Origin: Candidatus Nomurabacteria bacterium
Lineage (GTDB): Bacteria > Patescibacteriota > Minisyncoccia > Phycocordibacterales > UBA9973
Direction: 5' to 3'
Length of the DNA: 64,000 bases
Assembly: GCA_016699365.1 (NCBI GenBank)
Contig: CP064973.1
Coordinates: 365,684 to 429,683, forward strand
Shown: positions 1 through 30,593 of the stretch, piece by piece
Layout of the letters: every line of letters begins with the position of its first letter
How positions within the stretch are numbered: position 1 is the first letter of the stretch
Position numbers and translations under genes: made by a program
Notes under the pieces: generated by a model
The model's input: only the letters and a program-made list of their open reading frames with translations
Database searches by the model: none
What the model was told of the DNA's origin: nothing

Positions 1-67
1 TGGTATTGCGTTTGTTGATAAAATTTCTGATAAGGCTGCTAATGCTGTAGAGAATAGTGCAGTAGGG

Positions 68-864: not shown

Positions 865-902
865 ACTTAGTGAATCAAAGCCCTAGATAATAGGGTTTTG
901 AT

Positions 903-1233: not shown

Positions 1234-1258
1234 TCATAATTCAATAATAAAAATCACT

Positions 1259-1645: not shown

Positions 1646-1658
1646 TAACAAAAGATTT

Positions 1659-2192: not shown

Positions 2193-2197
2193 AAAAT

Positions 2198-2548
2198 ATG
2201 AAAACAGTAAACAAAAAAACAGAAAAGAGAAACCGCATAAAACGAAAGATCAAGATCAAGATCAGTGGTACTTCAGAGCGTCCACGCTTGTCAGTTTTTC
2301 GCTCAAATAAGTTTATATACGCACAGCTTATTGATGACACAAAAGGCACAACTCTGGCTTCATATTCAGATGTAAAAATAGACAAAGGAACAAAAAATGA
2401 AAGAGCAATAAGTGTTGGAAAAGAAATTGCTAAGATTGCTATTGAGAAGGGAATAAAAACTGTTGTTTTTGATAGAAATGGATTTAAATATACTGGACGT
2501 GTAAAACTTCTTGCAGATAAAGCTCGAGAAGGAGGATTAATTTTTTAA
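2198..2548 (+). CDS. rplR: 50S ribosomal protein L18
   Basis: [35 protein letters not shown] is an L18 signature. Confidence 0.9.
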
Positions 2549-2557
2549 ACTAATTAT

Positions 2558-3199
2558 ATGGATACAGAAGAGAACAAAAACATAACACCTGAAGTTGTAG
2601 CAGCAGAACCTAAGAAGGAGGCTGTTGTTCCACAGAAGAGAGAAGGTGGATCTCGTGGAGCACCAAAAGGTCATGGAGGAAATCGCTCTGGAGGCAGAAG
2701 TGGAGGTTTTTCTAGACCAAAACCAGAATTTGACCAAAAGATTATTGATATCCGTCGCGTTACTCGTGTTGTAGCAGGAGGACGTCGCATGAGTTTCTCT
2801 GTAGCTATGGTTATAGGAGACAAGAAAGGTTCAGTAGGATTTGGAACAGGAAAGGCTACAGATACAGCGCTCGCTATATCTAAAGCACTAAAGAATGCTA
2901 GAAAGAACATGATAACAATCAAGACTACAAAAGGAATGTCTATTCCTCATGAAGTAGAAGCAAAATTCGCAAGTTCACGAATCAAAATATCTCCAAACAA
3001 GAGACACGGAATAGTTGCAGGTAGTACTGTTCGTGATATCGTAATACTAGCAGGATTGAAAAACATTACAGGAAAGATTCATTCAGGAAGTAAAAACAAA
3101 TTGAATAACGCACAAGCTACTCTTAAGGCATTGTCACTTATAGCAACAAAGAAGCGAGTTGCTCCTGTAGAAGAAGTACAATCATACGTACAGCAATAA
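2558..3199 (+). CDS. rpsE: 30S ribosomal protein S5 (with Gly/Arg-rich N-terminal extension)
   Basis: IIDIRRVTRVVAGGRRMSFSVAMVIGDKKGSVGFGTGKATDTALAISKA is an S5 core. It is followed directly by L15 with no L30 gene in between. Confidence 0.9.
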   Translation: MDTEENKNITPEVVAAEPKKEAVVPQKREGGSRGAPKGHGGNRSGGRSGGFSRPKPEFDQKIIDIRRVTRVVAGGRRMSFSVAMVIGDKKGSVGFGTGKATDTALAISKALKNARKNMITIKTTKGMSIPHEVEAKFASSRIKISPNKRHGIVAGSTVRDIVILAGLKNITGKIHSGSKNKLNNAQATLKALSLIATKKRVAPVEEVQSYVQQ

Positions 3200-3210
3200 T
3201 TTGAAATTTT

Positions 3211-3654
3211 ATGCAAATACACAAACTAAAAAGAAATACTCCAAATAAAAAGAGCGCTCAAGTAGGACGTGGTGGTACTCGTGGAAAAACTTCTGGACGT
3301 GGAACAAAAGGACAGAAGTCACGCGCAGGTAACAAGAGACGCCCTCATATTCGAGATATCATAAAAAAGCTACCTAAACTTCGTGGTAGAGGTAAAAACA
3401 GTTTCGTTAGTTTTGAAATTAAACCAGCAGTTGTGAACCTATCTGCAATCGAATCTAATTTCAAAGCAGGGGATATTGTTACACCAACTATATTACTTGA
3501 AAAAAAGCTCGTAAAACGCATCCGTGGTATTACACCAAAAGTTAAACTATTAGGTACTGGTGAATTAACTAAGAAAATAATCTTCTCAAGAATACTAGTT
3601 TCAGAATCAGCAAAAGCTAAGATAGCTGCAACTGGAGGAGAAATACGCAAATAA
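3211..3654 (+). CDS. rplO: 50S ribosomal protein L15
   Basis: MQIHKLKRNTPNKKSAQVGRGGTRGKTSGRGTKGQKSRAG is a glycine/lysine-rich L15 N-terminus. Confidence 0.9.
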   Translation: MQIHKLKRNTPNKKSAQVGRGGTRGKTSGRGTKGQKSRAGNKRRPHIRDIIKKLPKLRGRGKNSFVSFEIKPAVVNLSAIESNFKAGDIVTPTILLEKKLVKRIRGITPKVKLLGTGELTKKIIFSRILVSESAKAKIAATGGEIRK

Positions 3655-3659
3655 AAATT

Positions 3660-4931
3660 ATGACAAAGTTCTGGCAAAAAATACATAAAATATTTACTGA
3701 TAAACAACTAAGAAAGCGAATATTGTTCACTGTGTTAATGCTGGCGGCTTTTAGAATTTTGGCTGCTATTCCAGTTCCGGGGATAGATACATCTCGACTA
3801 GCTTCTCTGCTCGCAAACAACCAATTCTTGGGAATAATAAATATATTTTCTGGAGGAGGACTATCAAACCTATCAATTATAATGTTGGGTGTAGGTCCAT
3901 ATATCACAGCTTCTATCATAATGCAGCTTCTTACTCTTATGATCCCTCGTTTGAAGGAGATGTATCAAGAAGAAGGTGAGATCGGAAGAAAGCGTTTTAC
4001 TCAATACTCAAGACTTCTTACAGTCCCTCTAGCTGCTATTCAAGGTTTTAGTTTGCTTGTAATACTTGCAAGACAAGGAGTTTTGCCTGCACTAGGATTA
4101 TTTGATCTTATAACTAGCATAGTAGTTATAATTGCTGGTTCTATGCTTTTGATGTGGATTGGTGAACTTATCACAGAATTCGGTATAGGTAACGGTGTCT
4201 CAGTTATAATTTTTGCAGGTATCGTAGCGACAGTTCCAACTCAAATGAGTCAAATCTTGTTCTCTTTTGATCCATCTCAGGTGCCATTTTATATACTCTT
4301 TATATTGGCTGGTATATTGATGATTATTGGAGTTATATATGTTACTGAGGCTGAAAGACCTATCCCTGTTACATATGCAAAACAATCAAGAGGTAACGCA
4401 ACAACACAAGGAGCTTCTACATATATCCCACTGCGCGTTAACCAAGCTGGAGTTATTCCTATAATTTTCGCACTATCAATACTTCTATTTCCACAACTTA
4501 TAGGTAACTACCTAGCAACTTCAACATCACTGTTTCTTTTGAAAGTTTCTGACTTCATGCTCTTGTTTGCTCAAGGAACACTTTGGTATGGAATTGCATA
4601 CTTTGTATTGGTATTCTTGTTCACTTACTTCTACACTGCTGTTACTTTTGATCCGCACGCTATGGCTACAAACTTACAAAAAGGCGGTGCTTTTGTTCCA
4701 GGTATTAGACCAGGAACTGCAACAGAAGAATATGTAGGTAACATAGTTACTCGCATAACATTCCTAGGCGCTCTATTCTTGGGATTGGTAGCAGTATTTC
4801 CATTCATCATTCAGAAAGTTACAGGTATCACACAACTTGCTATCGGCGGAACAGCACTCTTGATCGTAGTTTCTGTAGTGCTTGATATAATCAAAAAAAT
4901 CGACGCTCAGCTATCAATGCGAGAATACTAA
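3660..4931 (+). CDS. secY: preprotein translocase subunit SecY
   Basis: 423-aa polytopic membrane protein with SecY motifs (LFTVLMLAAFRI..., GGTALLIVVSV). Canonical position after rplO. Confidence 0.95.
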   Translation: MTKFWQKIHKIFTDKQLRKRILFTVLMLAAFRILAAIPVPGIDTSRLASLLANNQFLGIINIFSGGGLSNLSIIMLGVGPYITASIIMQLLTLMIPRLKEMYQEEGEIGRKRFTQYSRLLTVPLAAIQGFSLLVILARQGVLPALGLFDLITSIVVIIAGSMLLMWIGELITEFGIGNGVSVIIFAGIVATVPTQMSQILFSFDPSQVPFYILFILAGILMIIGVIYVTEAERPIPVTYAKQSRGNATTQGASTYIPLRVNQAGVIPIIFALSILLFPQLIGNYLATSTSLFLLKVSDFMLLFAQGTLWYGIAYFVLVFLFTYFYTAVTFDPHAMATNLQKGGAFVPGIRPGTATEEYVGNIVTRITFLGALFLGLVAVFPFIIQKVTGITQLAIGGTALLIVVSVVLDIIKKIDAQLSMREY

Positions 4932-5027
4932 AATATAAAGTAGCAAAAAACATACTGTCCAAAAATAATTCATAAATAAATTTATGAATTATTTTTCTAA
5001 AAGGACATTTTATGTTAGGATGCGAGT

Positions 5028-5636
5028 ATGGAAAACAAACCTCAAACATTTATATTCTTTGGCAGATCTGGATCTGGCAAGGGAACACAAGCTAAATTAC
5101 TCAAAGAACTTCTAGAAGGTAAAAACCGCAAGGTTATTTACCTTGAAACGGGTGAAAAGTTTAGAGACTTTATTCAGAAAGATAACTATACAGCTAATTT
5201 AACGAAGGGTGTTATGAAAGACGGAGGGCTACTGCCACCTTTTTTACCTGTATGGATTTGGGCAGATTCACTAATTGAGCAGTTTACTGGAGTAGAAGAT
5301 TTGATACTAGACGGACTTGCTCGTAGAGCATCAGAGGCTCCGGTGCTTGATTCTGCAATTTCTTTTTACAAAAGAGAAAGACCTTATGTTGTATCTATAA
5401 ATGTATCTAGGAATTGGTCAAAAGAACGCATGATGAGTCGAGGTAGGAGTGATGATACAGAAGAGTATATAGAGTCACGACTTGATTGGTATGATAGGGA
5501 TGTGGTGCCTGCTATAGAGTATTTTAGAAATCACTCAGGTTATCATTTTATTGATGTGCACGGTGAGCAGTCTATTGAAAAAGTTCACGAAGAATTGATT
5601 AAAAAGATTTCAATTTTAAAAGGTGATAATAATTAA
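5028..5636 (+). CDS. adk: adenylate kinase-like (P-loop GRSGSGKGTQA)
   Basis: FIFFGRSGSGKGTQAKLL P-loop. Canonical spc-operon position between secY and map. Divergent, without a LID zinc motif. Confidence 0.75.
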   Translation: MENKPQTFIFFGRSGSGKGTQAKLLKELLEGKNRKVIYLETGEKFRDFIQKDNYTANLTKGVMKDGGLLPPFLPVWIWADSLIEQFTGVEDLILDGLARRASEAPVLDSAISFYKRERPYVVSINVSRNWSKERMMSRGRSDDTEEYIESRLDWYDRDVVPAIEYFRNHSGYHFIDVHGEQSIEKVHEELIKKISILKGDNN

Positions 5637-6387
5637 AACAAAAAAAGAAATAGAAATTTTGCGTGAGGGCGGGAAGATCTTGGGTAAGGTGTTGGATTCC
5701 GTGGTCAAAAAAGTAAAACCAGGAATCACTACAGACGAGTTAGATAGATATGCGTATGAATTGATAAAAAAGGCTGGTGGTAAGCCTGCTTTTTTAGACT
5801 ACCAGCCTGATGGAGCTTCTTACCCATATCCAGCAACAATATGTATTTCAGTAAATGACGAAATAGTGCACGGTATTCCAAGTCCTAGAATTTTAAAAGA
5901 AGGCGATGTCGTTTCTCTTGATTTAGGACTTAATTACAAAGGTATGTTTACTGACCATGCTCGAACCGTGGGTGTGGGTAAAACAAATCTTAAATCTAGA
6001 AAATTACTTTCTGTCGCAGAAGAAGCATTGCATATAGGTATTGACCAGGCTCGTGCTGGAAATACTACAGGAGATATAGGGCATGCTATAGAAAGTTTTA
6101 TAAAACCATATAAATATGGAATCGTAAGAGAGCTTGCAGGACACGGAGTAGGACGTGCAATTCACGAAGATCCTTATATACCTAACTTTGGTAAGGCAGG
6201 GCATGGAGAAAAGCTTGTGGCGGGTATGGTGATTGCGATAGAGCCTATGGTAAACGAAGGCACAGCTTCTGTTGTATTTGAAGATGATGGATATACTGTT
6301 TCTACAAAAGACGGTAAAAAGAGTGCCCATTTTGAGCATACGGTTCTTATAACCGATGGAGATCCAGAAGTTTTAACAGAAGTATAA
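5623..6387 (+). CDS. map: methionine aminopeptidase type I
   Basis: 254 aa with metal-ligand regions (DVVSLDLG, HGVGRAIHE, IEPM). It overlaps adk by 14 bp. Confidence 0.9.
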   Translation: MIIIKTKKEIEILREGGKILGKVLDSVVKKVKPGITTDELDRYAYELIKKAGGKPAFLDYQPDGASYPYPATICISVNDEIVHGIPSPRILKEGDVVSLDLGLNYKGMFTDHARTVGVGKTNLKSRKLLSVAEEALHIGIDQARAGNTTGDIGHAIESFIKPYKYGIVRELAGHGVGRAIHEDPYIPNFGKAGHGEKLVAGMVIAIEPMVNEGTASVVFEDDGYTVSTKDGKKSAHFEHTVLITDGDPEVLTEV

Positions 6388-6414
6388 AATACCCCGTGAA
6401 TACGGGGTATTTTA
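6387..6414. terminator. bidirectional intrinsic terminator hairpin (ataccccgt gaat acggggtat)
   Basis: Perfect 9-bp GC-rich stem flanked by A and T runs, lying between convergent map(+) and 6412-7122(-). Confidence 0.6.
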
Positions 6415-7122
6415 TACTAATTCTTCTTCAAATACTTCTTCAGGTTTCAATGTTTTATTTTTTAAATTTTCTTGTGCCTGTAAATTTGTATATTCGATAT
6501 GAGTCTCCTTGTCTTTTTCGCTGACTTCTTGGTACCCATTTTCGATTTTACCGGATGATTCTTTAAAGAATTTTTTAGTTGCATCTACATTGTTCGGATG
6601 CATATATTCATATAAAAATTCCTCTGCCTCTTCTTTGTTTTTTATATCACTAGGTTCATATACCTTGTTGTATAATCTTTCATATCTTTTGATCTCACTT
6701 TTGTAATCCTCATATAATTTTGTAAAGTCTCGCAGGCTTTCTGCCGAAGAATCACGATATTTCATTGTAATTAGTATTAATGCTTCTAGAGCTTTCAGTC
6801 GATCCAGCATGTTTATTTGTGTCATGGAACTCATTTTTTCAAAATTAGCATCTTCTCTTAAGTCCAGACCATATTTACTGAACACTGATTTTTCAAAAGT
6901 ATTCATTTTATTGAAATCTTCTTCTGACATACTCGCAATATTTACATGAGTCCCTCTTTGGTAATATTCAGGTTTTGGGTGAGTAATTTCTTCTGCCTTT
7001 TGCTGAGTTACACCTCCAGTGTTTGATATATCCCTCTCTCCTGGGTCCATATCCTCAAGTGGCTTGGCTTGATCAAAGTTATTCATTTTATCCATATGGC
7101 TACTATACCATCTATTTTTCAT
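6412..7122 (-). CDS. hypothetical acidic protein
   Basis: 236-aa ORF, E/K/D-rich, with no recognisable family. It is divergent from the 7141-9867 ATPase with only an 18-bp spacer. Confidence 0.4.
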   Translation of the reverse strand: MKNRWYSSHMDKMNNFDQAKPLEDMDPGERDISNTGGVTQQKAEEITHPKPEYYQRGTHVNIASMSEEDFNKMNTFEKSVFSKYGLDLREDANFEKMSSMTQINMLDRLKALEALILITMKYRDSSAESLRDFTKLYEDYKSEIKRYERLYNKVYEPSDIKNKEEAEEFLYEYMHPNNVDATKKFFKESSGKIENGYQEVSEKDKETHIEYTNLQAQENLKNKTLKPEEVFEEELV

Positions 7123-7140
7123 ACTGTATAATAGAAAGTA

Positions 7141-9867
7141 ATGGAACCCAATTTTTTCAAAGAATTACCCAAATTTCAATCTCCTGAAGAGGAGTTGAAA
7201 TTTTTGCGAGAACACATAGCAAAAAGAGAGCAACAGTTAACTGAAGCAGGTTCTACTCCTGAGAAAAAAAATATAGCAGATGAGACCTTGCAGGCTTACA
7301 AGAATATTCCTCAAGAACAAGTTTTGTTGGAAAAAAATAAAGTCTCTGAAGCAGAAGCAGGACAATTTGTATTAAGACTAAAGCCAGAAGCCCACGATGC
7401 AAAGATGGAAGAGCTTTTGGGTGTTTTGATCTCTAGAGGCATAAAGGCTGCTATGGAGATGGCGTCTGGATTTAAGAATCCACATATAGATGATGACTTT
7501 CATAGATTCTTGGTTCAGTACTTAACTTCAACTCAAAACATTCCTGGATTAAAAGAAGGAACTCCGATGTTTAAGGGTCTTAACATGTCTCTTTTTGAAG
7601 TTACACTACCTCCTTCTGCGACAGGTAACGAAAAGAATTTCAAAGAACTTTTAGGTGCTATGGAGCAGTTTTATGCAGGTATGCAATCTGTTGCAGGGGA
7701 TATGAGCAATAAAACAAAAGAATATTACACACTCGAAATTGCTCTATCTAGTTCAAGCAACGAAGTTGTTGTGTACGCTGCTGTTCCAAAAAACAAAGGT
7801 CAACTATTTGAAAAACAAGTTTTATCTTTTTATACAGACGCAAAAGTTCGAGAAGTTAGTGATGACTACAATATATTTTCTGTAGGAGGGGCTTCTTCTG
7901 GTGCGTACGCTAGTTTGTCTGAGAATCCAATTATGCCAATCAAGACTCACGATATGCTTGATCATGATCCTATGCAAGCAGTTTTGAATGTTTTTTCAAA
8001 GATGAAACGTGAAGGTGAAGGAGCAGCTATACAATTTACCATCATCCCAGCTGGGGATACTTTTATAAAACGATTCACAAGTATCTTAAAGGATGTAAAA
8101 GATGGCTTATCTATAAAAGAGGCCAATGAAAAATATAAAGTCGGTTCTGCTATCCTAAGTGCTTCAAAAAATCTATTATTTGGATCTGGAAAAGAAAAAG
8201 ATAAAGACAAAAAAATTGATGATAATGCTGTAAATCATATAAGTGAAAAGATCAAAAGTTCCATTTTAGAAGTCGGCATACGGGTAATTGCTTCTGCAGA
8301 GACAAAAGAGAGAGCAGATGATATCTTGGTTGAGCTAGAAAGTGCGTTCAATCAATTTAATGATCCTGGAAGTAATAGATTTGCTTTCAATAAAATTTCA
8401 GACAAGAATTTACCAGGATTATTTCATGAGTATTCATATAGACTGATAAATGAATCCGAGAACCTTCCTCTAAATCTAAAAGAAATTTCAACAGTTTTTC
8501 ATTTTCCAGTTGGAGTAGGTAATCCACAGCTCAAAGAAGCAAAAGCTGGTATTGCTCCAGCACCACTCGATATGTCTAGTGATGGAATATTGCTCGGTAT
8601 AAATAAATACAGAGGTATGGAAACTCCTGTGCATATGAAGCGCGAAGATCGTATGCGTCACTTTTATGTTATTGGTCAGACCGGTACTGGTAAAACTGTG
8701 ATTTTGAAGAATATGATTGCTCAGGATATTGCAAATGGTGATGGATGTTGTTTTATAGATCCACACGGCACCGATATTCAAGATATATTGTCATATGTTC
8801 CGCCAGAGAGAATCGATGATGTTATCTATTTTGATCCTGCTTATATTCCTCGACCAATGGCGCTAAACATGCTTGAATTTGATCCACGATACCCAGAGCA
8901 GAAGACTATGGTTATAGACACACTCATGATGATCTTCAACCAGCTCTTTTCAAAAGAATCTATGGGGCCGATGTTTGAGCAGTATTTTAAAAATGGTGCA
9001 TATTTGGTTATGGATCATCCAGAGAGTGGCTCTACCTTGCTTGAAATCACCCGTGTTCTAGCAGATAAAGCTTTCCGAGATATGAAGCTACAACACTGTA
9101 AAAACCCTATTGTGAAGCAATTTTGGGCTTCTGCTGAAGCAACTACAGGTGATCAAGGTCTTTCAAACTTCGTACCCTACATCACTTCAAAATTTGATGT
9201 GTTTATCTCAAACGAGTTTACTCGTCCTGTTGTACTCCAAGAAACTTCTGCACTTAATTTTAGAGATATCATGGATAACAAGAAAATTCTTCTTGTGAAT
9301 CTGTCCAAGGGAAGACTAGGGGAACTGAATGCAAACTTGATAGGTATGCTTATTGTTATGAAGTTTCAGATGGCAGCACTTTCACGCGTTGATTCTTATG
9401 GAAAGCAGATGTCAGATTTTTATTTATACATAGATGAATTCCAGAACGTAACAACTCCTGCAATAGCATCTATTCTATCTGAGGCTCGTAAATATAGACT
9501 GTCGCTCAACGTTGCTCACCAATATATTTCACAGCTTCCAGATGATATTAAAAATGCAGTTTTTGGTAACGTGGGTTCAATGGCAGTATTTCGCATAAGT
9601 CCAGAAGATGCTTCGTTCTTGGAACCAAAATTTACTCCAACATTTACTGCACAAGATATTTCAAGACTCGATAACTACAACGCATATATGAGTATGATTA
9701 TAAATGGTGCACCGGCGTTGAAACCCTTCAATATAGAAACATTGGCGCCACGAAAAGGAAACGTAGAAATAGTAGAAAAATTGAAACAAATCTCATATCT
9801 AAAATACGGGCGTGATCGCGCAGAAGTAGAGGAAGAAGTTTTTGCAAAATTCAAGAAGTCTCAATAG
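7141..9867 (+). CDS. large P-loop ATPase, type IV secretion coupling-protein-like (VirD4/TraD/TrwB-type AAA domain) with ~500-aa N-terminal domain of unknown function
   Basis: Walker A HFYVIGQTGTGKTVILKNMI followed by IDPHGTDIQDIL. Walker B DFYLYIDEFQNV and an RKYRLSLNVAHQYISQL region resemble TrwB/TraD-type coupling ATPases. No other T4SS genes nearby. Confidence 0.55.
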   Translation: MEPNFFKELPKFQSPEEELKFLREHIAKREQQLTEAGSTPEKKNIADETLQAYKNIPQEQVLLEKNKVSEAEAGQFVLRLKPEAHDAKMEELLGVLISRGIKAAMEMASGFKNPHIDDDFHRFLVQYLTSTQNIPGLKEGTPMFKGLNMSLFEVTLPPSATGNEKNFKELLGAMEQFYAGMQSVAGDMSNKTKEYYTLEIALSSSSNEVVVYAAVPKNKGQLFEKQVLSFYTDAKVREVSDDYNIFSVGGASSGAYASLSENPIMPIKTHDMLDHDPMQAVLNVFSKMKREGEGAAIQFTIIPAGDTFIKRFTSILKDVKDGLSIKEANEKYKVGSAILSASKNLLFGSGKEKDKDKKIDDNAVNHISEKIKSSILEVGIRVIASAETKERADDILVELESAFNQFNDPGSNRFAFNKISDKNLPGLFHEYSYRLINESENLPLNLKEISTVFHFPVGVGNPQLKEAKAGIAPAPLDMSSDGILLGINKYRGMETPVHMKREDRMRHFYVIGQTGTGKTVILKNMIAQDIANGDGCCFIDPHGTDIQDILSYVPPERIDDVIYFDPAYIPRPMALNMLEFDPRYPEQKTMVIDTLMMIFNQLFSKESMGPMFEQYFKNGAYLVMDHPESGSTLLEITRVLADKAFRDMKLQHCKNPIVKQFWASAEATTGDQGLSNFVPYITSKFDVFISNEFTRPVVLQETSALNFRDIMDNKKILLVNLSKGRLGELNANLIGMLIVMKFQMAALSRVDSYGKQMSDFYLYIDEFQNVTTPAIASILSEARKYRLSLNVAHQYISQLPDDIKNAVFGNVGSMAVFRISPEDASFLEPKFTPTFTAQDISRLDNYNAYMSMIINGAPALKPFNIETLAPRKGNVEIVEKLKQISYLKYGRDRAEVEEEVFAKFKKSQ

Positions 9868-17305: not shown

Positions 17306-17310
17306 ACCAG

Positions 17311-17694
17311 TGGAAATGGGGGGAGTCGAACCCCCGTGCAAGGGAGGTTTCGTATGGAGTCTACGTGCATAGTTTGTTTTATTTGTTTAAAGCAAATATC
17401 TATAAAACCAACAAAATAATATTTACTCGATTCTCAATTGTTTCGAAAATTATCTGAGACGCGATATTTTTCTATCCCGATAGATGTTGCCTCGTGTATT
17501 TTATCGGAAGTCGAACACAGAGACACTCGCGAGCTTAAGCTCGAGCGAGAGCAAGATCAGCCATACCGAAGTATGGTGATGTTACCTTACCAAATGTTTT
17601 TGCATTTGAGTTTTGTGCGCTGTTTTACGAGCGTTTCGCACGAGCTCGGCACGCACCATACAAAACTAATCCTTTGTCGATGCCTTACATTCCC
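17311..17694 (-). ncRNA. ssrA: tmRNA (transfer-messenger RNA, ssrA), ~384 nt
   Basis: Minus-strand 5' end is GGGAATGTAAGGCATCGACAAAGG. The 3' end is GGGGGTTCGACTCCCCCCATTTCCA, a T-arm plus an acceptor that pairs with the 5' end. An internal tag reading frame is present, and the gene lies immediately downstream of smpB. Confidence 0.85.
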
Positions 17695-20927: not shown

Positions 20928-21003
20928 TTTTGCGTGCTCGCAAAACATCACTGCGCCTTGGGCTAGTATCGAAAATAGGAAGCAGTTCCTATTTTCTATC
21001 TAG

Positions 21004-21077
21004 TCCACCCTCTTGGATTCGAACCAAGGACCCCAGAGGTATAAGCTCTGTGCTCTAACCAACTGAGCTAAGGGTGG
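21004..21077 (-). tRNA. tRNA-Ile with anticodon UAU (decodes AUA)
   Basis: Minus-strand read CCACCCT TA GCTC AGTTGGTTA GAGC A CAGAG CTTATAC CTCTG GGGTC CTTGG TTCGAAT CCAAG AGGGTGG A. The anticodon loop CTTATAC gives UAU. Confidence 0.7.
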
Positions 21078-24820: not shown

Positions 24821-25186
24821 TCCTAATATAGATTTTATTTTATCAGACAATTCGTCTAGCGTGAAGTTTGATTTGATCATGAAATCTGTTGCACCAAGTT
24901 CACGAGCACGTGCTATGTCTTTGTCTTCTGATAGATTTGAGAAAACTATTACAGGTGTTTTTGCGAGAGCAGCATTTGAGCGTATTTTTTCTAGAACTGT
25001 GAATCCGTCCATAGTAGGAAGTACTAAGTCTAGGAGTACAAAATCAGGATTTTCACTATCTGCAATCTTCACTGCATCTTCACCTGTTGAGGCAGTAAGT
25101 ACTTGAAATCCATCTTTTGATAATTTTCCTGCTGCAAGTCCTTGTAGGAATGAATCGTCTTCAATTATAAGAATTTTCTTTGGCAT
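24815..25186 (-). CDS. response regulator, receiver domain only (CheY-like)
   Basis: KILIIEDD...DFVLLDLVLPTMDGFTVLEKIR...KTPVIVFSNL carries the phospho-acceptor Asp and Lys. Confidence 0.8.
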   Translation of the reverse strand: MPKKILIIEDDSFLQGLAAGKLSKDGFQVLTASTGEDAVKIADSENPDFVLLDLVLPTMDGFTVLEKIRSNAALAKTPVIVFSNLSEDKDIARARELGATDFMIKSNFTLDELSDKIKSILGL

Positions 25187-25210
25187 ATAATGTATTGTAC
25201 TCGTGACACC

Positions 25211-25963
25211 TTATCTGTGCAAGGGTAGTGAAAATGTAAAAGTAGTGCCTTCACTTTCGGTAGATTTGAAGTTTATTTTACCACCATGTTTTTCTATTAT
25301 GTGCTTAGTTGTATATAAACCCAATCCTGATCCAATAGAGTCTTTGGCTTTGGCATTTGTAGCTCTATAAAATTTACCAAATATTTGTTCTTGCTCACTT
25401 ACAGGTATTCCTATGCCAGTGTCTTTTACTGAAATTTCCACTTCGTTTTCATTTGCATGAATAGATATGAGCACCTTGTCTCCTGTATTGCTGTATTTAA
25501 TTGCATTTTCGATTAGATTTTGAATAACAACTCTAACCTTTTCTTTGTCGCAAGTTATCTGTTTGATTGGATTTTCTGGTTTTAAGAAAATTGTCTCAAT
25601 ACCTTTTTTGAAAGCTTCACTAGAGAAGTCAAAAAGAGTTTCATCTATTAGTTTGACCATATCCACTTCTTCAAAATTGTAAGTCAGAGATGTTGTGTCT
25701 GCATGATTGAGTGAAAGCATTTCGTTTACAAGCGATAACATGCGTTCGTTTGAATCACTTGCACGTTTCATAAAATCTGTTTGCTCAGGAGTTAGTTCGC
25801 CAAAATCTTTGTCTAGAAACATGCGGAGTATCCACTTCACAGCGGAAAGGGTAGTTCGGAGCTGGTGCGCAGATATAGAAATCCAATTACTTTTTAGTGC
25901 ATTTTGTTGCTTGAGTTCTTCGTTCTCTTTTTTAAGTTGTTCAATTTCTTCTGTTTCAGTCAT
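25211..25963 (-). CDS. cytoplasmic sensor histidine kinase (coiled coil + HisKA + HATPase_c)
   Basis: H-box ISAHQLRTTLSAV, N-box NLIENAIKYS, and G-boxes DTGIGIP and GSGLGLY. The track ORF continues to 26230, but those extra 89 codons are translation of the GC-rich inverted repeat. The proposed start is MTETEE. Confidence 0.75.
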   Translation of the reverse strand: MTETEEIEQLKKENEELKQQNALKSNWISISAHQLRTTLSAVKWILRMFLDKDFGELTPEQTDFMKRASDSNERMLSLVNEMLSLNHADTTSLTYNFEEVDMVKLIDETLFDFSSEAFKKGIETIFLKPENPIKQITCDKEKVRVVIQNLIENAIKYSNTGDKVLISIHANENEVEISVKDTGIGIPVSEQEQIFGKFYRATNAKAKDSIGSGLGLYTTKHIIEKHGGKINFKSTESEGTTFTFSLPLHR

Positions 25964-26003
25964 GAGAGCATTATACCTTGCGAGGGTATGTAGTACAAAA
26001 TTT

Positions 26004-26214
26004 GCGGTGTTTGTTGGACAAAGTTCGAAACTATTTCGAGCAAAATCCAAACGATTAAAACTAATATAATGGACTCGGCAGGGCGAAACAATTTGTCTGG
26101 GGGAATGGATTCGCCCTGCCTCGGCTGATTTCCCGCCCGCAGGAGGGGTCTGGGGAGGAATGCGGGCGGGTTTCGGACTGGGGGTTTTCAGAAATTTCGC
26201 CATCGGATTTCGTA
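26004..26214. repeat. inverted copy of the left 211 bp of the 327-bp GC-rich unit (reverse complement of 27794-28004, 1 mismatch seen)
   Basis: Direct comparison of the two stretches. GC-rich and hairpin-dense, e.g. cccgcccgca...tgcgggcggg. Confidence 0.85.
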
Positions 26215-26235
26215 CCAATAAAGTTGGCACACCGC

Positions 26236-26667
26236 CTATGTTTTTATTCTATCAATATTTTCTACCGATAGCCAAGCCGACATCATTCCAAATCCTGCCT
26301 TGTTAATTTCAAACGGCTCAATTTCTTTCGGATTTTTCAAAAATATCAAAAGACAATAATTTTTATTTTTGAATAACTCAAAAAATTCCTTAATTTTATC
26401 TTTTTCGATTCCGTCATCATTTCCGTATTCATCTAAAATCTGACTAACTTTTTCGGGTGTTAAATCGGAAAAGGAAACCACTTTTTCTACTTCGGTCTTG
26501 ATTGAAACAGGTTCACCAGAATCTTTGAAATAAACAGTATCGCCTTTTCCGATTTTTCCCCAAGGAGAGTGTTTTGATTTATACCACCGAGATTCAATTT
26601 TCTTTTGTCCCGAAAGAATTTTTTGAGTTAATCCCCATGATTTTTTCATTATTGCCACATGGTCCAT
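26236..26667 (-). CDS. ASCH-like (PUA-fold) domain protein
   Basis: MKKSWGLTQKILSGQKKIESRWYKSKHSPW...GDTVYF resembles ASCH-domain openings. Moderate to low confidence. Confidence 0.35.
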   Translation of the reverse strand: MDHVAIMKKSWGLTQKILSGQKKIESRWYKSKHSPWGKIGKGDTVYFKDSGEPVSIKTEVEKVVSFSDLTPEKVSQILDEYGNDDGIEKDKIKEFFELFKNKNYCLLIFLKNPKEIEPFEINKAGFGMMSAWLSVENIDRIKT

Positions 26668-26705
26668 ATTTATTTTTTCTTTAGTTCATAATACTTGCTA
26701 ATTTT

Positions 26706-27473
26706 CTAATAACCTTTTGTTTTCAGCCAATCAATAATTATGTTAGAAAATTTTTCTGGATTAAACAAACACCAATCATGATTACCGTCTACGAATTTTA
26801 ATTCAGAATTTTCTATATTCCGATGAAAATTTTCTGCAAGATTTTTAGGAAATATTTCATCTTGTTCGCCCCACAAAATTAAGGTTTTTGCACTAACATT
26901 ATGGAAATCAGGGAAGTCGGTCAATAAAAACTTTTTTACCACACTTATCGTAAATTTCCGTTCAGAAAATCTTTTGGAAACATTTTCAAAAAAGTCTCTA
27001 ACAATTAGCAAAAAAGTCCCAAGATTTCTATATTTGAAAATGTCGCGGATTGTTTTTTCAATAAAATAAATATACAAAAACTTAAATTTTGAAATATTTT
27101 GTGAAAGTCCGACAGAATCAGTCAGAACCATTAACTGAATATTTTTATTGCTCGCTGATAACTGTAGAGCTACAACACCACCGAAAGAATGGCCAACAAT
27201 TGCAATTTTCCCAAAGTTAAGGAAAGTTATAAATTTTTTCAAAATTTTGGAATAATCTGAAATATTGCTTGAGCATGTGGATTTTCCAAAACAAGGTAAG
27301 TCGGGAGCAATAACTAAATATTCTTTTGACAAAAAATCCAAAACTTTTTTATAAGTTAAGGCATTTACTCCACCACCATGCAAAAACAAAATCGCATTTC
27401 CCGAACCAACTTGAAAATATCTCAATTTATCATGCCCGTCTTCAAAATATTTTTCCGTATATTGCATGGTCAT
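26706..27473 (-). CDS. alpha/beta-fold hydrolase
   Basis: Nucleophile elbow GHSFGG, HGGG oxyanion-region LFLHGGGVNA, and a C-terminal His (DGNHDW). Confidence 0.7.
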   Translation of the reverse strand: MTMQYTEKYFEDGHDKLRYFQVGSGNAILFLHGGGVNALTYKKVLDFLSKEYLVIAPDLPCFGKSTCSSNISDYSKILKKFITFLNFGKIAIVGHSFGGVVALQLSASNKNIQLMVLTDSVGLSQNISKFKFLYIYFIEKTIRDIFKYRNLGTFLLIVRDFFENVSKRFSERKFTISVVKKFLLTDFPDFHNVSAKTLILWGEQDEIFPKNLAENFHRNIENSELKFVDGNHDWCLFNPEKFSNIIIDWLKTKGY

Positions 27474-27682
27474 TTCATTAGATCATCAATTGAAACGCCC
27501 AACCCTTTGGCGATTTTTGCCATAGTTTCAATTGTCGGATTCGGTGTTGCGCCAGATTCAACTTTGATAATCACATTATAAGCAATATCAGCCAACTTCG
27601 AGAGTTTATCCTGCGAAATACCGAGTTTCTCTCTGTATTTTTTTATATTTTTTGCAATTGTTGGTAATTCTTTTGACTTCAT
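27470..27682 (-). CDS. XRE-family helix-turn-helix transcriptional regulator (70 aa)
   Basis: LGISQDKLSKLADIAYNVIIKVESG...IETMAKIAKGLGVSIDDL is a Cro/C1-type HTH. It overlaps the hydrolase gene by 4 bp. Confidence 0.75.
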   Translation of the reverse strand: MKSKELPTIAKNIKKYREKLGISQDKLSKLADIAYNVIIKVESGATPNPTIETMAKIAKGLGVSIDDLMK

Positions 27683-27793
27683 AGTATAATTATACTAGTA
27701 TAGATAGTGAGATAAGTTTTACTATTATAACTTTACCAAATAAAATGAATTTAATCAAACAAAATTTTTGGCGGTGCATTTCGCAAAGCGAAA

Positions 27794-28120
27794 TACGAAA
27801 TCCGATGGCGAAATTTCTGAAAATCCCCAGTCCGAAACCCGCCCGCATTCCTCCCCAGACCCCTCCTGCGGGCGGGAAATCAGCCGAGGCAGGGCGAATC
27901 CATTCCCCCAGACAAATTGTTTCGCCCTGCCGAGTCCATTATATTAGTTTTAATCGTTTGGATTTTGCTCGAAATAGTTTCGAACTTTGTCCAACAAACA
28001 CCGCCAAAATTGAAAATCGGAATCGGAAGCCGAAATGGGGTCGGCACGAAGTGCCGACACAAATGTATTCCCCCCAAAAAATCCTGAATCTGAAAGGGTT
28101 CGCCACGCTCCGCGTGGCTC
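27794..28120. repeat. 327-bp GC-rich, hairpin-dense unit (U). Its left 211 bp and right 120 bp each recur as inverted copies at the outer ends of the 26004-29639 segment.
   Basis: Strong stems such as ggcagggcgaa...ttcgccctgcc, ggtcggcac gaa gtgccgac and gccacgc tcc gcgtggc sit in an otherwise AT-rich genome. The two inverted repeats overlap by 4 bp, CCGC at 28001-28004. Confidence 0.8.
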
Positions 28121-28139
28121 CTCGTTTGCCAATACAATT

Positions 28140-29648
28140 ATGAATAATCAAACCAAAAAGTTTTTCATTTATACTCGCAAGTCTACGGACGACAAAGACA
28201 GACAAGTCCGCAGTATTTCTGACCAATTAGCGGAATTGAAAAGTTTAGCGTTGAAAGAACAAATTGATGTTGTTGATGTCTTTGTCGAAAAGCAGACCGC
28301 CAAAATACCAGGTCGCCCTGTGTTTAATGAAATGTTGGAAAGAATGGAAAAGGGTGAAGCGACTGGTATTTTGGCGTGGCATCCCGATAGACTTGCGAGA
28401 AACTCGGTAGACGGAGGAAAAATCATCTACCTCGTTGATACTGGAATAATTAGTGAAATGAAATTTCCAACTTTTTGGTTTGATCCGACACCGCAAGGCA
28501 AATTCATGCTTTCAATCGCTTTTTCGCAATCCAAGTATTATGTAGATAATTTGTCGGAAAATATAAAGCGAGGTCATCGCAACAAAGTGAAAGACGGAAT
28601 ATGGCCTCAAATGGCTCCGCTTGGATATGTGAACAAAAATAGAAAAATTATTCCCGATGAGAATATCGCACCTTTAATCAAGAAAACATTTGAGGCATAT
28701 TCGTCTGGGTCTTTCACTTTGCGCCAACTCCGCGATAAGTTTAACGAACTTGGATTGAAGCGAAAAAGCGGAAAGGAACTTGCGGTGTCGAATTATCAAA
28801 AACTTTTGAAAAATCCAATTTACACAGGACTAATGTTGTATAACGGCGAGATACACGAAGGTAAACACGAACCGATTATCACAAAGAAACTTTTTGATTC
28901 CGTTCAGGAAGTGATGATGAGAAAAAGCAAACCTCATTCCAAAGGACTAAAACCATTTTTGTACAGAGGATTTTTCCGTTGCGGAGAATGTGGCTGTTTC
29001 ATTACCACTGAAACACAGAAAGGTTATAACTATTTGCGATGTACGAAACGGAAAAATCCTTGCTCACAAAAATATACCCGTGAGGAAATCATCACTTCCG
29101 AAATTCAAAAGGAAATCAAAAAAGTTTCTTTGCCAGACGATTGGGCTAAATGGATGTTAGCGGAAAATGAAAAAGACAAATTGGTGGAAGCCCAATCGTC
29201 TACGCTTTTTGCCGACAAAACAAAAGCCGATATTTCTCTTTTGGATTCCAAAATTGAGAAGCTGATGAACGCTTACTTAGAGAACGCTTTATCACTTGAG
29301 GAATATCGAGAAATGAAAAACAAGCTAGTGAACGAAAAACAGCTTCTCAAAGAGAAATTATCGGCTTTTGAGCAAAAAGCGAATAATCGGTTCGAACTTA
29401 CCGAAAAGTTTTTGAAATACAATATGGAATTGGCAAACGAGGGAATAAATGAAGAGAAACTTCATTTATTCAAAAAAGTCGGTTCGAACTTTATTATTGA
29501 AGCTCGAACCGTACTTTTTGAGCCACGCGGAGCGTGGCGAACCCTTTCAGATTCAGGATTTTTTGGGGGGAATACATTTGTGTCGGCACTTCGTGCCGAC
29601 CCCATTTCGGCTTCCGATTCCGATTTTCAATTTTGGCGGAGGATGTGA
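28140..29648 (+). CDS. large serine recombinase (resolvase catalytic domain + recombinase domain + zinc ribbon + coiled coil)
   Basis: FIYTRKSTDDKDRQVRSISDQ holds the catalytic Ser region. GILAWHPDRLARN, a Cys cluster CGECGCF...C..., and a long C-terminal coiled coil follow. The proposed start is ATG 28140 (MNNQTKK). The last ~40 codons run into inverted repeat 29520-29639. Confidence 0.85.
   Translation: MNNQTKKFFIYTRKSTDDKDRQVRSISDQLAELKSLALKEQIDVVDVFVEKQTAKIPGRPVFNEMLERMEKGEATGILAWHPDRLARNSVDGGKIIYLVDTGIISEMKFPTFWFDPTPQGKFMLSIAFSQSKYYVDNLSENIKRGHRNKVKDGIWPQMAPLGYVNKNRKIIPDENIAPLIKKTFEAYSSGSFTLRQLRDKFNELGLKRKSGKELAVSNYQKLLKNPIYTGLMLYNGEIHEGKHEPIITKKLFDSVQEVMMRKSKPHSKGLKPFLYRGFFRCGECGCFITTETQKGYNYLRCTKRKNPCSQKYTREEIITSEIQKEIKKVSLPDDWAKWMLAENEKDKLVEAQSSTLFADKTKADISLLDSKIEKLMNAYLENALSLEEYREMKNKLVNEKQLLKEKLSAFEQKANNRFELTEKFLKYNMELANEGINEEKLHLFKKVGSNFIIEARTVLFEPRGAWRTLSDSGFFGGNTFVSALRADPISASDSDFQFWRRM
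29520..29639. repeat. inverted copy of the right 120 bp of unit U (reverse complement of 28001-28120, 120/120)
   Basis: Exact match on direct comparison. Its outer end overlaps the CCA end of the adjacent tRNA. Confidence 0.9.
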
Positions 29649-29723
29649 GATTCGAACTCACGGAGCTGTTTAAGGCTCGGCAGTTTAGTAAACTGCTGGT
29701 TTCAACCACTCACCCAATCCTCC
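29634..29723 (-). tRNA. type-II (long variable arm) tRNA with encoded CCA and non-canonical anticodon loop UUACUAA (formal anticodon ACU); identity uncertain (Ser-like)
   Basis: Minus-strand read GGAGGAT TG GGT GAGTGGTTGAA ACC A GCAGT TTACTAA ACTGC CGAGCCTTAAACAGCTCCG TGAGT TCGAATC TCACA TCCTCC G CCA. It has a good acceptor and T-arm, but the anticodon loop is unusual. Confidence 0.5.
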
Positions 29724-29744
29724 ATATTTCAAATACAGAAACAG

Positions 29745-29831
29745 CGGAGACGGTGAGATTCGAACTCACGGGGGTTTTTACACCCCGCCTCCTTAGCAAG
29801 GAGGTACCTTAAACCACTCAGACACGTCTCC
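29745..29831 (-). tRNA. tRNA-Ser (anticodon GCU), type II
   Basis: Minus-strand read GGAGACG...CCTCC TTGCTAA GGAGG + long variable arm CGGGGTGTAAAAACCCCCG + TGAGT TCGAATC TCACC GTCTCC G. The anticodon loop gives GCU. Confidence 0.7.
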
Positions 29832-29876
29832 ATATCGAGATGAGAATACCACAACACGGCCATTTTTTCTAGTTTT

Positions 29877-30593
29877 TTAGTGCGCCACCACTAGTGCGAT
29901 TATGTTTCTCGCACCAGCTTCGCGTAAGACTCGGCGAGCTTCTTTTAGAGTTGCACCAGTTGTATATACATCGTCGATCAAGATTATATTTTTTCCTCTC
30001 ATATCTACTCCAGACTTTATTTTGTATGCACCTTGTAGATTTCTCAATCTTTCCAATCGGTTCCTGACTTTTGCTTGAGCTTTTGTGTCGCGGATTTTTT
30101 CTAATATATCTCCACCATATAGAAACTCTTTATCCGTGAGATTTTCTATAAAAGCTCTCGCCAGGAGTGCTGATTGATTATATCCACGTATGCGTTTTCG
30201 GTTTCTTGTGATTGGTATCGGTATAATCAGAGTTTCTTTGTTTGCATTGAAAATATTCTTTTCACTCAATATGTCTATGTTGTGTTCATACAAAGATTGG
30301 CCTAATATTTTTGCAATAGGGAATCTGCCATGGTATTTGAGTAGCCACAATGCATGCTTTACCGTACTGTCTTTATATGAAAAGCATGCATGCACAAAAG
30401 AATCTGGGATTTGGTTCGGTTCGGGGATTTTTCCTAGACATTTATCACATAGTACACTCCCTGTATTTTTGCACTTTATACACTTGGTTGGGAAAATGTA
30501 CTCGAGTATTGATGAGATTATATTCATAAATAAAATATGTATATATGATATAATACAATTACTGAATTTTATATATGGCAAACACATTTTCAA
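29877..30593 (-). CDS. comF: ComF family protein (competence protein ComFC; zinc finger + phosphoribosyltransferase domain)
   Basis: N-terminal CxxC...CxxC (CIKCKNTGSVLCDKC) and the C-terminal PRTase motif ILIDDVYTTGATLKEA. The true start is probably an internal Met near 30527. Confidence 0.75.
   Translation of the reverse strand: MKMCLPYIKFSNCIISYIHILFMNIISSILEYIFPTKCIKCKNTGSVLCDKCLGKIPEPNQIPDSFVHACFSYKDSTVKHALWLLKYHGRFPIAKILGQSLYEHNIDILSEKNIFNANKETLIIPIPITRNRKRIRGYNQSALLARAFIENLTDKEFLYGGDILEKIRDTKAQAKVRNRLERLRNLQGAYKIKSGVDMRGKNIILIDDVYTTGATLKEARRVLREAGARNIIALVVAH

Follow-up and report, generated by a model that had tools for sequence, protein, structure and literature searches.

The segment from 26004 to 29639 of the window, the 64-kb stretch of DNA analysed here, is probably (we estimate about 0.7, from sequence comparison) a single integrated copy of a compact integrative element in the 3' end of a tRNA-Ser(ACU) gene. 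The family to which we assign it is large and consists of small mobile elements that are widespread in ultra-small Patescibacteria (CPR) and target the 3' ends of serine tRNA genes; almost all members are in genomes labelled Patescibacteria. The element in the window comprises 3,632 bp plus a duplicated 4-nt core and lies between the tRNA-Ser(ACU) 3' end and the DNA that natively follows that tRNA. Its interior holds a conserved, complete, inverted copy of the joined element ends (attP), an arrangement for which we found no described precedent in the literature. The features are as follows.

25964..26003, no strand: host flank B, former attB left half, once just downstream of tRNA-Ser(ACU) (from the flanks in L088, L169, and L170)
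26004..26007, no strand: left crossover core GCGG (attL), common to L', U, and R'; a variable flank adjoins GCGG in every complete element
26004..26214, minus: L', left terminal arm, inverted U 1-211; P-type half-site and two G+C-rich hairpins
26236-26667, minus: ASCH-domain protein, cargo (Pfam PF04266, E = 3e-4, a weak match just above the curated cut-off)
26706-27473, minus: alpha/beta-fold hydrolase, cargo (Pfam Abhydrolase_1, E = 1e-20)
27470-27682, minus: XRE-family HTH regulator, first gene of the cargo operon (Pfam HTH_3, E = 6e-15)
27683..27793, no strand: A+T-rich spacer, promoter-like sites both ways (sigma-70-like consensus matches)
27794..28120, plus: U, the joined element ends (L.R) preserved intact in the interior; a whole attP, inverted
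28001..28004, no strand: internal crossover core CCGC, the L/R junction, where the identity break between exchanged modules maps
28140-29648, plus: large serine recombinase, 502 aa (Pfam PF00239, PF07508, PF13408; Resolvase, Recombinase, Zn_ribbon_recom)
29470..29519, no strand: A-run, hairpin, and T-run inside the recombinase gene, directly inside R' (terminator-like match)
29520..29639, minus: R', right terminal arm, inverted U 208-327; rebuilds tRNA G73-CCA
29634-29723, minus: tRNA-Ser(ACU), target gene, B' half of attB (ARAGORN; Rfam, 54.5 bits)
29636..29639, no strand: right crossover core GCGG (attR), equal to tRNA positions 74-71
29744-29831, minus: tRNA-Ser(GCU) (ARAGORN and Rfam)

Repeat architecture and gene content

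A repeat search, blastn, and base-by-base comparison delimited U as a 327-nt unit with 51% G+C, against 37% in the window. L' is the reverse complement of U 1-211 (27794-28004) at 210 of 211 positions (blastn E = 3e-107), the sole mismatch being 26184 versus 27824, and R' is the reverse complement of U 208-327 (28001-28120) at 120 of 120 (E = 6e-59). Because the outer copies share their terminal 4 nt, which read CCGC in U, joining 29639 to 26004 would rebuild an inverted U. The repeat pairs, the shared core, and this rebuilt copy had been described in an initial annotation, and blastn and base-by-base comparison confirmed all of them. No extra copy of U was found by blastn in the 64-kb window. 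Pfam likewise bore out the genes first proposed for the segment, namely a serine recombinase, an XRE regulator, an alpha/beta hydrolase, and, with a weak match, an ASCH-like protein. Replication genes are absent from the element, and the cargo contains no evident recombination directionality factor.

The recombinase has distant matches to the SPbeta and A118 integrases and falls far below every curated family cut-off (best NCBIfam match XisF, 98 bits versus a cut-off of 375). It has more than 7,600 homologues, and the top 120 clusters are 85 to 97% identical. Its last 43 codons lie within R', and the last 3 codons and the stop lie antisense within the tRNA gene.

We compared about 166 related loci with recombinases 81 to 98% identical to that of the window, from genomes labelled as many different Patescibacteria candidate phyla. 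Wherever the sequence sufficed, the layout was the same: host flank, GCGG-L' (about 200 nt), XRE-led variable cargo, L.R, recombinase, R' (120 nt)-GCGG, and tRNA-Ser 3' end. Script-based classification placed L.R upstream and R'.tRNA-Ser downstream of the recombinase in 82/166 loci, the others being mostly cut by contig ends or carrying variant arms. Of the 137 loci in which the junction upstream of the recombinase gene was readable, 113 have a U-like segment immediately before the gene; most of the remainder have a variant L arm, and 4 or 5 have a plus-strand tRNA-Ser 3' end instead. The build is bipartite family-wide, with a cargo module (XRE and variable genes) within inverted L'/L arms of about 200 nt and a recombinase module within 120-nt inverted R/R' arms, joined at the internal core. 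In the 50 complete elements used for arm, cargo, and flank statistics, the medians for the L'/L arms are 202 nt in length and 99.5% in identity. R and R' have a median identity of 100% within 123 elements and 78% between elements. An identical layout surrounds recombinases only 40 to 43% identical, one of them at tRNA-Ala with the core GTGG.

The tRNA-Ser(ACU) junctions

The overlap of R' with a tRNA CCA end by 6 nt, noted earlier, is correct (TGGCGG = CCGCCA), and ARAGORN and Rfam identify the gene as tRNA-Ser(ACU). R' adjoins the 3' end of a tRNA-Ser gene, of any isoacceptor, in at least 118/166 loci. The left flanks of the 50 complete elements are mutually unrelated, and the right flank is the tRNA-Ser 3' end; the junctions have GCGG alone in common. 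Several left flanks, judged by eye and unscored, end in a hairpin and then a T-run, like a displaced tRNA terminator.

Uninterrupted sites occur in relatives of the host, as the initial annotation had suggested checking. In two of these (L169 and L170) tRNA-Ser(ACU) is unoccupied and is followed by flanks similar to the left flank of the window, ACAAATTCTT and TAAAATTCT, respectively, each abutting GCGG. A further locus, L088, retains a remnant in which the left flank of the window remains joined to nine nucleotides of the tRNA 3' end (GCGG plus AGGAT). Host flank B also contains the -10 box of a histidine kinase gene. Orthologues of this kinase have 247 to 257 aa, which places its start at the ATG at 25963; interruption of the kinase by the element was therefore rejected, and the long ORF reaching 26230 is a read-through of the kinase frame into L'.

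The half-sites point to a serine integrase. The motif TTCGAA occupies +12..17 from the core in the tRNA arm (109 cases) and +17..22 in the L' arm (43 cases), and this 5-bp offset corresponds to the attB/attP geometry of serine integrases; for LI integrase, the ZD motif is shifted by 5 bp between attB and attP (PMC3783163). The R arm gave no clean mirror of L' in the half-site motif comparison. Together with the shared layout, the unoccupied tRNA-Ser(ACU) sites and this geometry support the proposal, made at the outset, that a small element whose recombinase gene is flanked by long inverted repeats integrated next to a tRNA 3' end by crossover inside one of the repeats.

Cargo and control regions

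The cargo is 0.8 to 5.7 kb long in the 50 complete elements and varies across loci, with many restriction-modification and abortive-infection genes. The XRE gene, which adjoins the L copy in 44/50, is the sole conserved cargo gene. The alpha/beta hydrolase gene is missing from the first 80 related loci and is thus variable cargo; ASCH genes also occur as cargo in L084.

The spacer between the XRE gene and U is probably a divergent control region for the XRE and recombinase genes, as judged from sequence; the plus-strand sigma-70-like matches at 27661-27746 are consensus matches alone, as numerous as expected from shuffles. U probably doubles as a long 5' leader on the recombinase transcript, and its hairpins show compensatory changes between elements. 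The 29470..29519 segment looks like a bidirectional terminator that probably ends tRNA-Ser read-through: its hairpin is kept in all but one of 32 distinct sequences, and the minus-strand terminator-like match (29511-29480) is a consensus match at chance frequency.

Possible signatures of recombination at the internal copy

Several patterns suggest that the internal inverted attP copy is recombinationally active. The L'-X-L modules of L030 and L033 are 98.45% identical over 2,712 nt, yet inverted relative to each other; their recombinase modules are only 84.7% identical, the drop falling at the core. L and R arm types occur in differing combinations among elements, the arms within an element are identical or nearly so, and four loci (L031, L084, L089, and L115) contain tandem arrays with precise R'.L' junctions. 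The cargo is inverted in about 5/50 complete elements (3/50 by script, with L056 and L060 read by hand), a count in which some isomers may be assembly choices, since short-read assembly has difficulty in orienting a segment flanked by 200-nt inverted repeats. No unambiguous circular junction was found; the R'.L' joints that follow 15/120 recombinase variants are all explicable by tandem arrays. Pairing of attP with another attP or with attR is not a reaction of canonical serine integrases. Activity at U would therefore require putatively relaxed pairing rules.

Alternative explanations

That last point also speaks for an alternative in which U is a duplicated regulatory or structural block (leader and hairpin insulator inside; terminator or 3' trailer at the ends) with no role in recombination, inversions and swaps arising by homologous recombination and arm identity by gene conversion. 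The likely promoters do precede U and the recombinase start follows it, 19 nt separating the end of R from the ATG. The hairpins of U covary, the conserved terminator-like hairpin adjoins R', and the recombinase gene contains a conserved 14-nt stretch complementary to the sequence before its ATG. However, the duplication has the crossover core at its centre and takes in the two half-sites, which pure regulation would not need; the L030/L033 breakpoint falls at the core between stretches without shared homology for RecA; and the tandem arrays show that this recombinase family uses sites besides pristine attB. We consider this explanation unlikely, if the strongest of the competitors.

Somewhat less probable is that two separately mobile modules sit side by side, an IS-like R-recombinase-R' and a non-autonomous cargo cassette L'-X-L, each with palindromic joined ends, the apparent circular permutation being a by-product of adjacency. 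Each module does behave as a unit in reassortment and inversion, the breakpoints falling at the core, and in L016, L046, L058, L130, and L134 a plus-strand tRNA-Ser 3' end, not L, precedes the recombinase module, which in L016 and L046 also has a minus-strand tRNA-Ser downstream and so lies between two convergent tRNA-Ser genes. Where both arms of such cases are readable, however, they are unequal (79 to 89% identity), as from deletion or recombination between two elements. Palindromic joints would need a self-complementary crossover dinucleotide; the core of the tRNA-Ala relative, GTGG, contains none, and the ZD-motif spacing fits GG as the crossover in the element family. No L.tRNA junction was seen among the related loci, L.R is contiguous in more than 80% of the readable ones, and the cases in which another sequence precedes R appear to be variant L arms, with their own inverted copies found for L084 and L099.

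The initial annotation had also considered an invertible switch. This is right in part, as cargo modules occur in both orientations; moreover, the crossover cores mark the outer ends of the inverted repeats, an arrangement known from the C segment of phage P1. A domesticated, fixed host switch (shufflon- or Cin-like) is nevertheless highly improbable: it is contradicted by insertion polymorphism, and unrelated left flanks, closely similar recombinases across many candidate phyla, variable defence-rich cargo, and tandem copies all argue against it. Collapse of an extrachromosomal circle or chimeric reads into the chromosome during assembly, raised at the same time, has a negligible probability even though repeats of 120 to 211 nt are longer than short-read k-mers and the ends of many related contigs fall inside U, because the same architecture and junction nucleotides recur in dozens of assemblies made independently, by different projects and with different assemblers, including chromosome-level ones (L029 and L062) and contigs of several hundred kilobases.

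For the integrative element that we favor, we infer the role of the internal attP copy as follows. Free elements would be circular and have two attP copies, R'.L' and, in the opposite orientation, L.R (U). One of these would be recombined with attB by the large serine recombinase, probably with crossover at the GG of GCGG. As an attB motif the enzyme would read TTCGAA of the tRNA T-arm; as an attP motif it would read the TTCGAA of L', which lies 5 bp farther from the core. Once integrated, the element would retain an intact U between the XRE and recombinase genes as both recombinase leader and live recombination site. Such a site could let whole cargo or recombinase modules invert and swap between elements and would also fit the stacking of new copies in tandem at the tRNA, and frequent recombination between arms could keep them identical.

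Comparison with known systems

Large serine integrase elements (phages A118/LI, SPbeta with SprA, Bxb1, and phiC31; SCCmec with CcrAB; fdxN with XisF) share the resolvase, recombinase, and zinc ribbon domains, junction identity of a few nucleotides, the 5-bp attB/attP motif offset, and a recombinase gene beside the attachment site. Unlike them, the element described here targets a tRNA 3' end with a left attB half that is not conserved, retains internally a complete inverted attP of about 327 bp, has no evident directionality factor, and forms tandem arrays and module swaps that imply noncanonical site pairings. The clostridial transposons Tn4451 and Tn5397 resemble it in that one large serine recombinase (TnpX or TndX) appears to perform both insertion and excision-type reactions under looser rules of site pairing. 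These transposons differ in inserting at many GA-containing sites rather than at a tRNA end and in having no long inverted internal copy of the joint.

The invertible segments of phages P1 and Mu (Cin/Gin) and shufflons resemble the element in having inverted repeats with crossover sites at their outer ends and a recombinase encoded alongside. Those systems switch protein variants at a fixed location by means of small serine invertases, or of the tyrosine recombinase Rci, with an enhancer and Fis, whereas the family described here has a large serine recombinase, shows insertion polymorphism, and lacks alternative coding ends. Tycheposons and other tRNA-targeting islands of Prochlorococcus are likewise small cargo elements of streamlined genomes, with tRNA integration, tandem stacking, and defence or adaptive cargo; they have tyrosine integrases in 910/937 cases, often carry replication genes, and leave tRNA-fragment direct repeats, and an internal inverted attP is described for none (bioRxiv 10.1101/2020.12.28.424599). 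The yeast 2-micron plasmid, with FLP/FRT within 599-bp inverted repeats, differs in its tyrosine recombinase and in being a plasmid; the element here is integrative, lacks replication and partition genes, and has a putative circle and putative recombinase-driven inversion. What the two would share is a circle with two long inverted repeats and two unique arcs, a recombinase gene in one arc, and a crossover site in each repeat; the arcs occur in both relative orientations.

Repeat structure and gene content of the element

The element is organized around an internal repeat, U (positions 27794 to 28120; 327 nt), which has a G+C content of 51% versus 37% in the window. The left part of U (L) recurs in inverted orientation at 26004 to 26214 (L'; 210 of 211 positions identical, the sole mismatch being 26184 versus 27824), and its right part (R) recurs inverted at 29520 to 29639 (R'; 120 of 120). 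A single 4-nt core, GCGG/CCGC, is common to all three copies, and no further copy of U was found within the 64-kb window. The coordinates, matches, and shared core described in the initial annotation were thus reproduced exactly. The genes listed there (a recombinase, an XRE regulator, an alpha/beta hydrolase, and an ASCH-like protein) were all recovered as domain matches, that to ASCH being weak, and the reported 6-nt overlap of R' with a tRNA gene corresponds to the shared sequence TGGCGG. The relevant features are as follows.

29634-29723, minus strand: tRNA-Ser(ACU), 54.5 bits, overlapping R' at TGGCGG
29744-29831, minus strand: tRNA-Ser(GCU)
Within the element: large serine recombinase, 502 aa, with PF00239, PF07508, and PF13408

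The catalytic domain of the recombinase (PF00239, E = 1e-18) covers residues 9 to 154 and carries the N-terminal motif IYTRKSTDD. The C-terminal part matches PF07508 (E = 1e-14) and a zinc ribbon (PF13408, E = 1e-7), and residues 198 to 409 can be aligned to the C-terminal domain of the A118 integrase. Exact-sequence look-ups returned no identical protein for the recombinase or the hydrolase. In IMG/VR, the best match to the recombinase was only 23% identical and no close relative was found; we therefore rejected the possibility that the element is a phage. An Rfam search of positions 25000 to 30500 (E ≤ 1) returned the two tRNAs only, and so U fits no known RNA family. To the left of the element, the histidine kinase gene is uninterrupted, since its start lies at 25963, as judged from orthologues of 247 to 257 aa. 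Elsewhere in the window are a tRNA-Ile gene with anticodon UAU (21003-21077, minus strand), also present in the related locus L169, and a tmRNA gene (17310-17694, minus strand).

Integration at the 3' end of tRNA-Ser

The initial annotation had read the arrangement as an integration and proposed looking in relatives for an uninterrupted site. Two related loci provide one. In L169, whose kinase orthologue is 69% identical, tRNA-Ser(ACU) is unoccupied and reads ...ACAAATTCTT/GCGG/AGGCGGTGAGATTCGAAC; in L170, the unoccupied gene reads ...TAAAATTCT/GCGG/AGG.... In a third locus, L088 (kinase 90% identical), the flank that lies to the left of the element in the window is still fused to GCGG plus AGGAT, which form the final 9 nt of the tRNA; another island follows. 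Integration of the element at the tRNA-Ser 3' end is thus supported directly. Without the element, the site in the window would read ...ACAAAATTT-GCGG-AGGATGTGAG, and a circle or tandem joint would link 29635 to 26008 through one GCGG.

Across the family, R' adjoins the 3' end of a tRNA-Ser gene, whichever the isoacceptor, and the junction reads ...TTTTGGCGG/AGrrg..GATTCGAAC. The tRNA gene is restored at this end: the native genes contain C74 and do not encode CCA, and R' brings G73-CCA. The tRNA scores 54.5 bits. attL and attR share GCGG alone, with no long direct repeat, and this also applies to the approximately 20 complete elements for which we read the left junction.

Several further observations concern these tRNA genes. 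The L088 island (124-8225), different from the element and at the same tRNA-Ser(ACU) site, leaves 9 nt of the tRNA beside the kinase flank. It encodes a CBASS-like pair (SMODS plus bacterial HORMA), an N6/N4 methyltransferase, an S24 peptidase, and a 510-aa protein without a Pfam match. In L087, the closest relative (kinase 98% identical; positions 1 to 100 compared with 25976 to 29878 of the window), 29878 is joined to 25975, so that it is the tRNA-Ser(GCU) end of the block that points toward the kinase; L087 ends 29 nt into the tRNA gene. The more distant L169 (2966-3348) shares this order (act, gct, followed by the divergent kinase), and the window and L088 have the opposite one, which implies that the block has been inverted; no obvious repeats mark the breakpoints. 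The pair of tRNA-Ser(ACU), with A at position 34, and tRNA-Ser(GCU) recurs in many Patescibacteria loci (the window, L016, L046, L050, L058, L071, L094, L169, and L170); an A34 tRNA-Ser is unusual and looks redundant with GCU. A 604-aa recombinase in L031 (11328-13142), 31% identical to that of the window and without the inverted-repeat layout, ends at the tRNA-Ser(GCU) 3' end, and tRNA-Ser ends appear to be a hot spot common to several recombinase lineages. A third recurrent right junction, GCGG/..ACTCGAGTTAAGTACCC instead of the tRNA, occurs in L009 (7501-7530), L125, and L136 and in 5 of 120 recombinase C termini (...FWRATRVKYP). It has no Rfam match in L009 and may mark where a further family of elements, stacked at the tRNA, ends.

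A widespread family with a conserved layout

Homologs of the recombinase number in the thousands, and the best 120 database clusters are 85 to 97% identical to it; the few named clusters are labeled Patescibacteria, Shapirobacteria, Pacebacteria, Liptonbacteria, and Minisyncoccia. Matches were found in species-representative genomes (322 stretches) and in metagenomes (at least 381 stretches). We sampled 80 loci from each set and added a few extra contigs via individual recombinase variants. Family recombinases are 81 to 98% identical in amino acids across genomes labeled as many different candidate phyla, a degree of similarity that implies recent and frequent gene flow.

U-like sequence lies directly upstream of the recombinase gene in nearly all sampled loci, and in nearly all, an inverted 120-nt R' closes this gene and ends at one and the same nucleotide. 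With enough upstream DNA available, the full layout could be read in 50 elements, including that of the window: host flank/GCGG-L'-cargo-L.R-recombinase-R'-GCGG/tRNA. Their left host flanks are unrelated to one another. It is well supported that the window contains a real integrated member of a widespread Patescibacteria family. Two apparently solo recombinase modules (L014 and L072) more likely have variant L arms, as do L084 and L099. One 73-kb contig (Ga0247842_10000592) carries two copies of the element (L090 and L094) at two tRNA-Ser genes, gga and act.

The cargo of the 50 complete elements ranges from 0.8 to 5.7 kb. Its only conserved gene is the XRE regulator adjoining an L copy; the remaining genes are mostly singletons, and the sampled cargo is rich in restriction-modification, abortive-infection, and other accessory functions. 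Examples include an EcoRI-type methylase with GmrSD and a UvrD helicase, a C5-methylase, an AAA_13 ATPase, Abi_C, a glycosyltransferase, and a cytochrome d1 protein. Replication genes were absent from the cargo of the window and from the sampled cargo (10 proteins from complete elements and Pfam searches of four further contigs), and no candidate RDF was found apart from the XRE protein.

In the complete elements, median values for the L arms are 202 nt in length and 99.5% in identity. R and R' are identical within elements (median, 100%; n = 123), whereas between elements their identity is 78% and drops to 69% over the 36 nt adjoining the core. Therefore, the arms evolve in concert. The same tripartite repeats, with unrelated sequences, surround two other recombinases found next to these elements and only 43% and 40% identical to that of the window, each with two pairs of inverted repeats (L021, 7632-10994; L059, 4882-8279). 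One of the two targets tRNA-Ala(GGC), where the core is GTGG and occupies identical tRNA positions. Judged from these comparisons, the tripartite architecture is old and maintained.

The internal repeat as a predicted attP

The tRNA arm has the consensus GATTCGAAC, with TTCGAA at +12 to +17 from the core (n = 109), and the L' arm has the consensus AAGTTCGAA, with TTCGAA at +17 to +22 (n = 43); the motif spacing of the R arm is less clear than that of the L' arm. In the LI integrase system, the motif bound by the zinc-ribbon domain lies 5 bp further inward in attB than in attP (PMC3783163), and the offset between the tRNA and L' arms is likewise 5 bp. With the crossover set at the GG of GCGG, the motifs occupy positions 11 to 19 and 15 to 23, nearly coinciding with the LI system. 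Because the half-site geometry matches that of a serine integrase pair, R'.L' is the predicted attP and the tRNA end the predicted attB. By the same geometry, U is a complete predicted attP in inverted orientation. The GTGG core in the relative at tRNA-Ala and the spacing of the zinc-ribbon-domain motif both speak against a palindromic GC crossover, which would permit separate circles of each module.

Signs of recombination at the internal copy

Comparison of loci revealed signs that U is recombinationally active. The L'-X-L cargo modules of L030 and L033 are 98.45% identical over 2,712 nt in opposite orientations, whereas the recombinase modules of the two loci match at only 84.7%, with an abrupt loss of identity at the core. 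L-arm and R-arm types are reassorted across the family. The cargo is inverted in about 5 of the 50 complete elements. As a caveat on all these orientations, short-read assembly has difficulty in resolving them across 200-nt inverted repeats. Tandem arrays with precise R'.L' joints were seen in L031, L084, L089, and L115, and to form them, an incoming attP must recombine with attR or attL. Together with the module swaps at the core, the arrays suggest a site pairing looser than the textbook attP × attB. In L130, the recombinase module is reversed against a tRNA-Ser; rarer arrangements have unequal arms, fitting homologous recombination between multiple copies.

Two further arrangements were considered and set aside. 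Read-through across R'.L' in 15 of 120 recombinase C termini could be taken for circles, but the tandem arrays give the same junction. The tRNA/R-recombinase-R'/tRNA loci L016 and L046 are not proof of a second attB captured by U, because their arms are only 79 to 89% identical, as a deletion or a recombination event involving two elements would leave them.

The reason for keeping the spare inverted attP is inferred, and we put at about one in five the probability that it is a working part of a new mobility strategy and not a leftover. If so, a promiscuous, RDF-independent recombinase would use the internal attP for an integron-like cassette platform: at tRNA-Ser genes throughout Patescibacteria, cargo and recombinase modules bounded by inverted repeats would flip, be exchanged, and stack up. 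More speculatively, U might be a built-in template that brings both ends of the element together. L' and R' would anneal to U in single-stranded DNA, so that an integrated copy acquired by natural transformation could give rise to attP again.

Predicted expression features

Plus-strand promoter-like sites at 27661 to 27746, upstream of U and no more numerous than in shuffled sequence, would make U a structured recombinase leader of about 330 nt; they are suggestive only. Pairing in the R hairpins is kept through compensatory changes. Within the recombinase gene, immediately before R', a conserved A-run, hairpin, and T-run (29470-29519) has the shape of a bidirectional terminator. Again suggestive only, this predicted terminator would halt read-through from the tRNA; in the sense direction, the recombinase mRNA would stop at it, some 130 nt short of the stop codon. 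A 14-nt sequence (CCTCGTTTGCCAAT; 28120-28133) begins 20 nt upstream of the recombinase ATG, and its perfect complement lies inside the gene at 29429 to 29442, a location that it keeps in 118 of 129 loci. In effect, the R/R' repeat resumes as this 14-nt pair after a 77-nt interruption containing the terminator-like hairpin.

Significance and comparison with known systems

To our knowledge, descriptions of mobile elements from Patescibacteria are few. Our literature search, to which most subscription journals were outside coverage, yielded no description of this family or its architecture and no natural elements with two attP sites. The build with a spare inverted attP is common to recombinases down to 40% identity, and we found no described serine-integrase counterpart. 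The acceptor/T-arm of tRNA-Ser is a well-defined, universally present natural target, and the recombinase is thus a candidate genetic tool for Patescibacteria, which are hard to manipulate.

The element is a serine-integrase element with an unusual, conserved modular architecture. It shares with large serine integrase elements the resolvase, recombinase, and zinc-ribbon domains, the short shared core, and the 5-bp motif offset. As to a circular form, empty attB sites occur in relatives, and the intact R'.L' junctions that we found are explainable by tandem arrays. A reconstructed circle, in which the core would lie at positions 208 to 211 of the 327 in U, would resemble 2-micron-like flip plasmids in having two long inverted repeats, each with a target, and two arcs. 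Both cargo orientations occur here, which inversion catalyzed by the recombinase, as in those plasmids, may have produced. The replication and partition functions of such plasmids have no counterpart in a cargo of XRE, hydrolase, and ASCH proteins. The alternative of an invertible switch, offered in the initial annotation, stands insofar as some cargo is inverted (the same 5 or so elements, with the same assembly caveat). It fails on the enzyme and the locus: Hin/Gin/Cin switches stay at one locus and use a small serine recombinase that bears an HTH at its C terminus, whereas this recombinase is large, at 502 aa, and its insertion is polymorphic. Islander-type islands likewise insert at tRNA 3' ends and restore the gene, but they use a tyrosine integrase and leave a displaced tRNA fragment as a direct repeat, in contrast to the serine recombinase and 4 repeated nucleotides seen here. 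The nearest ecological analogue of the family is the tycheposons.
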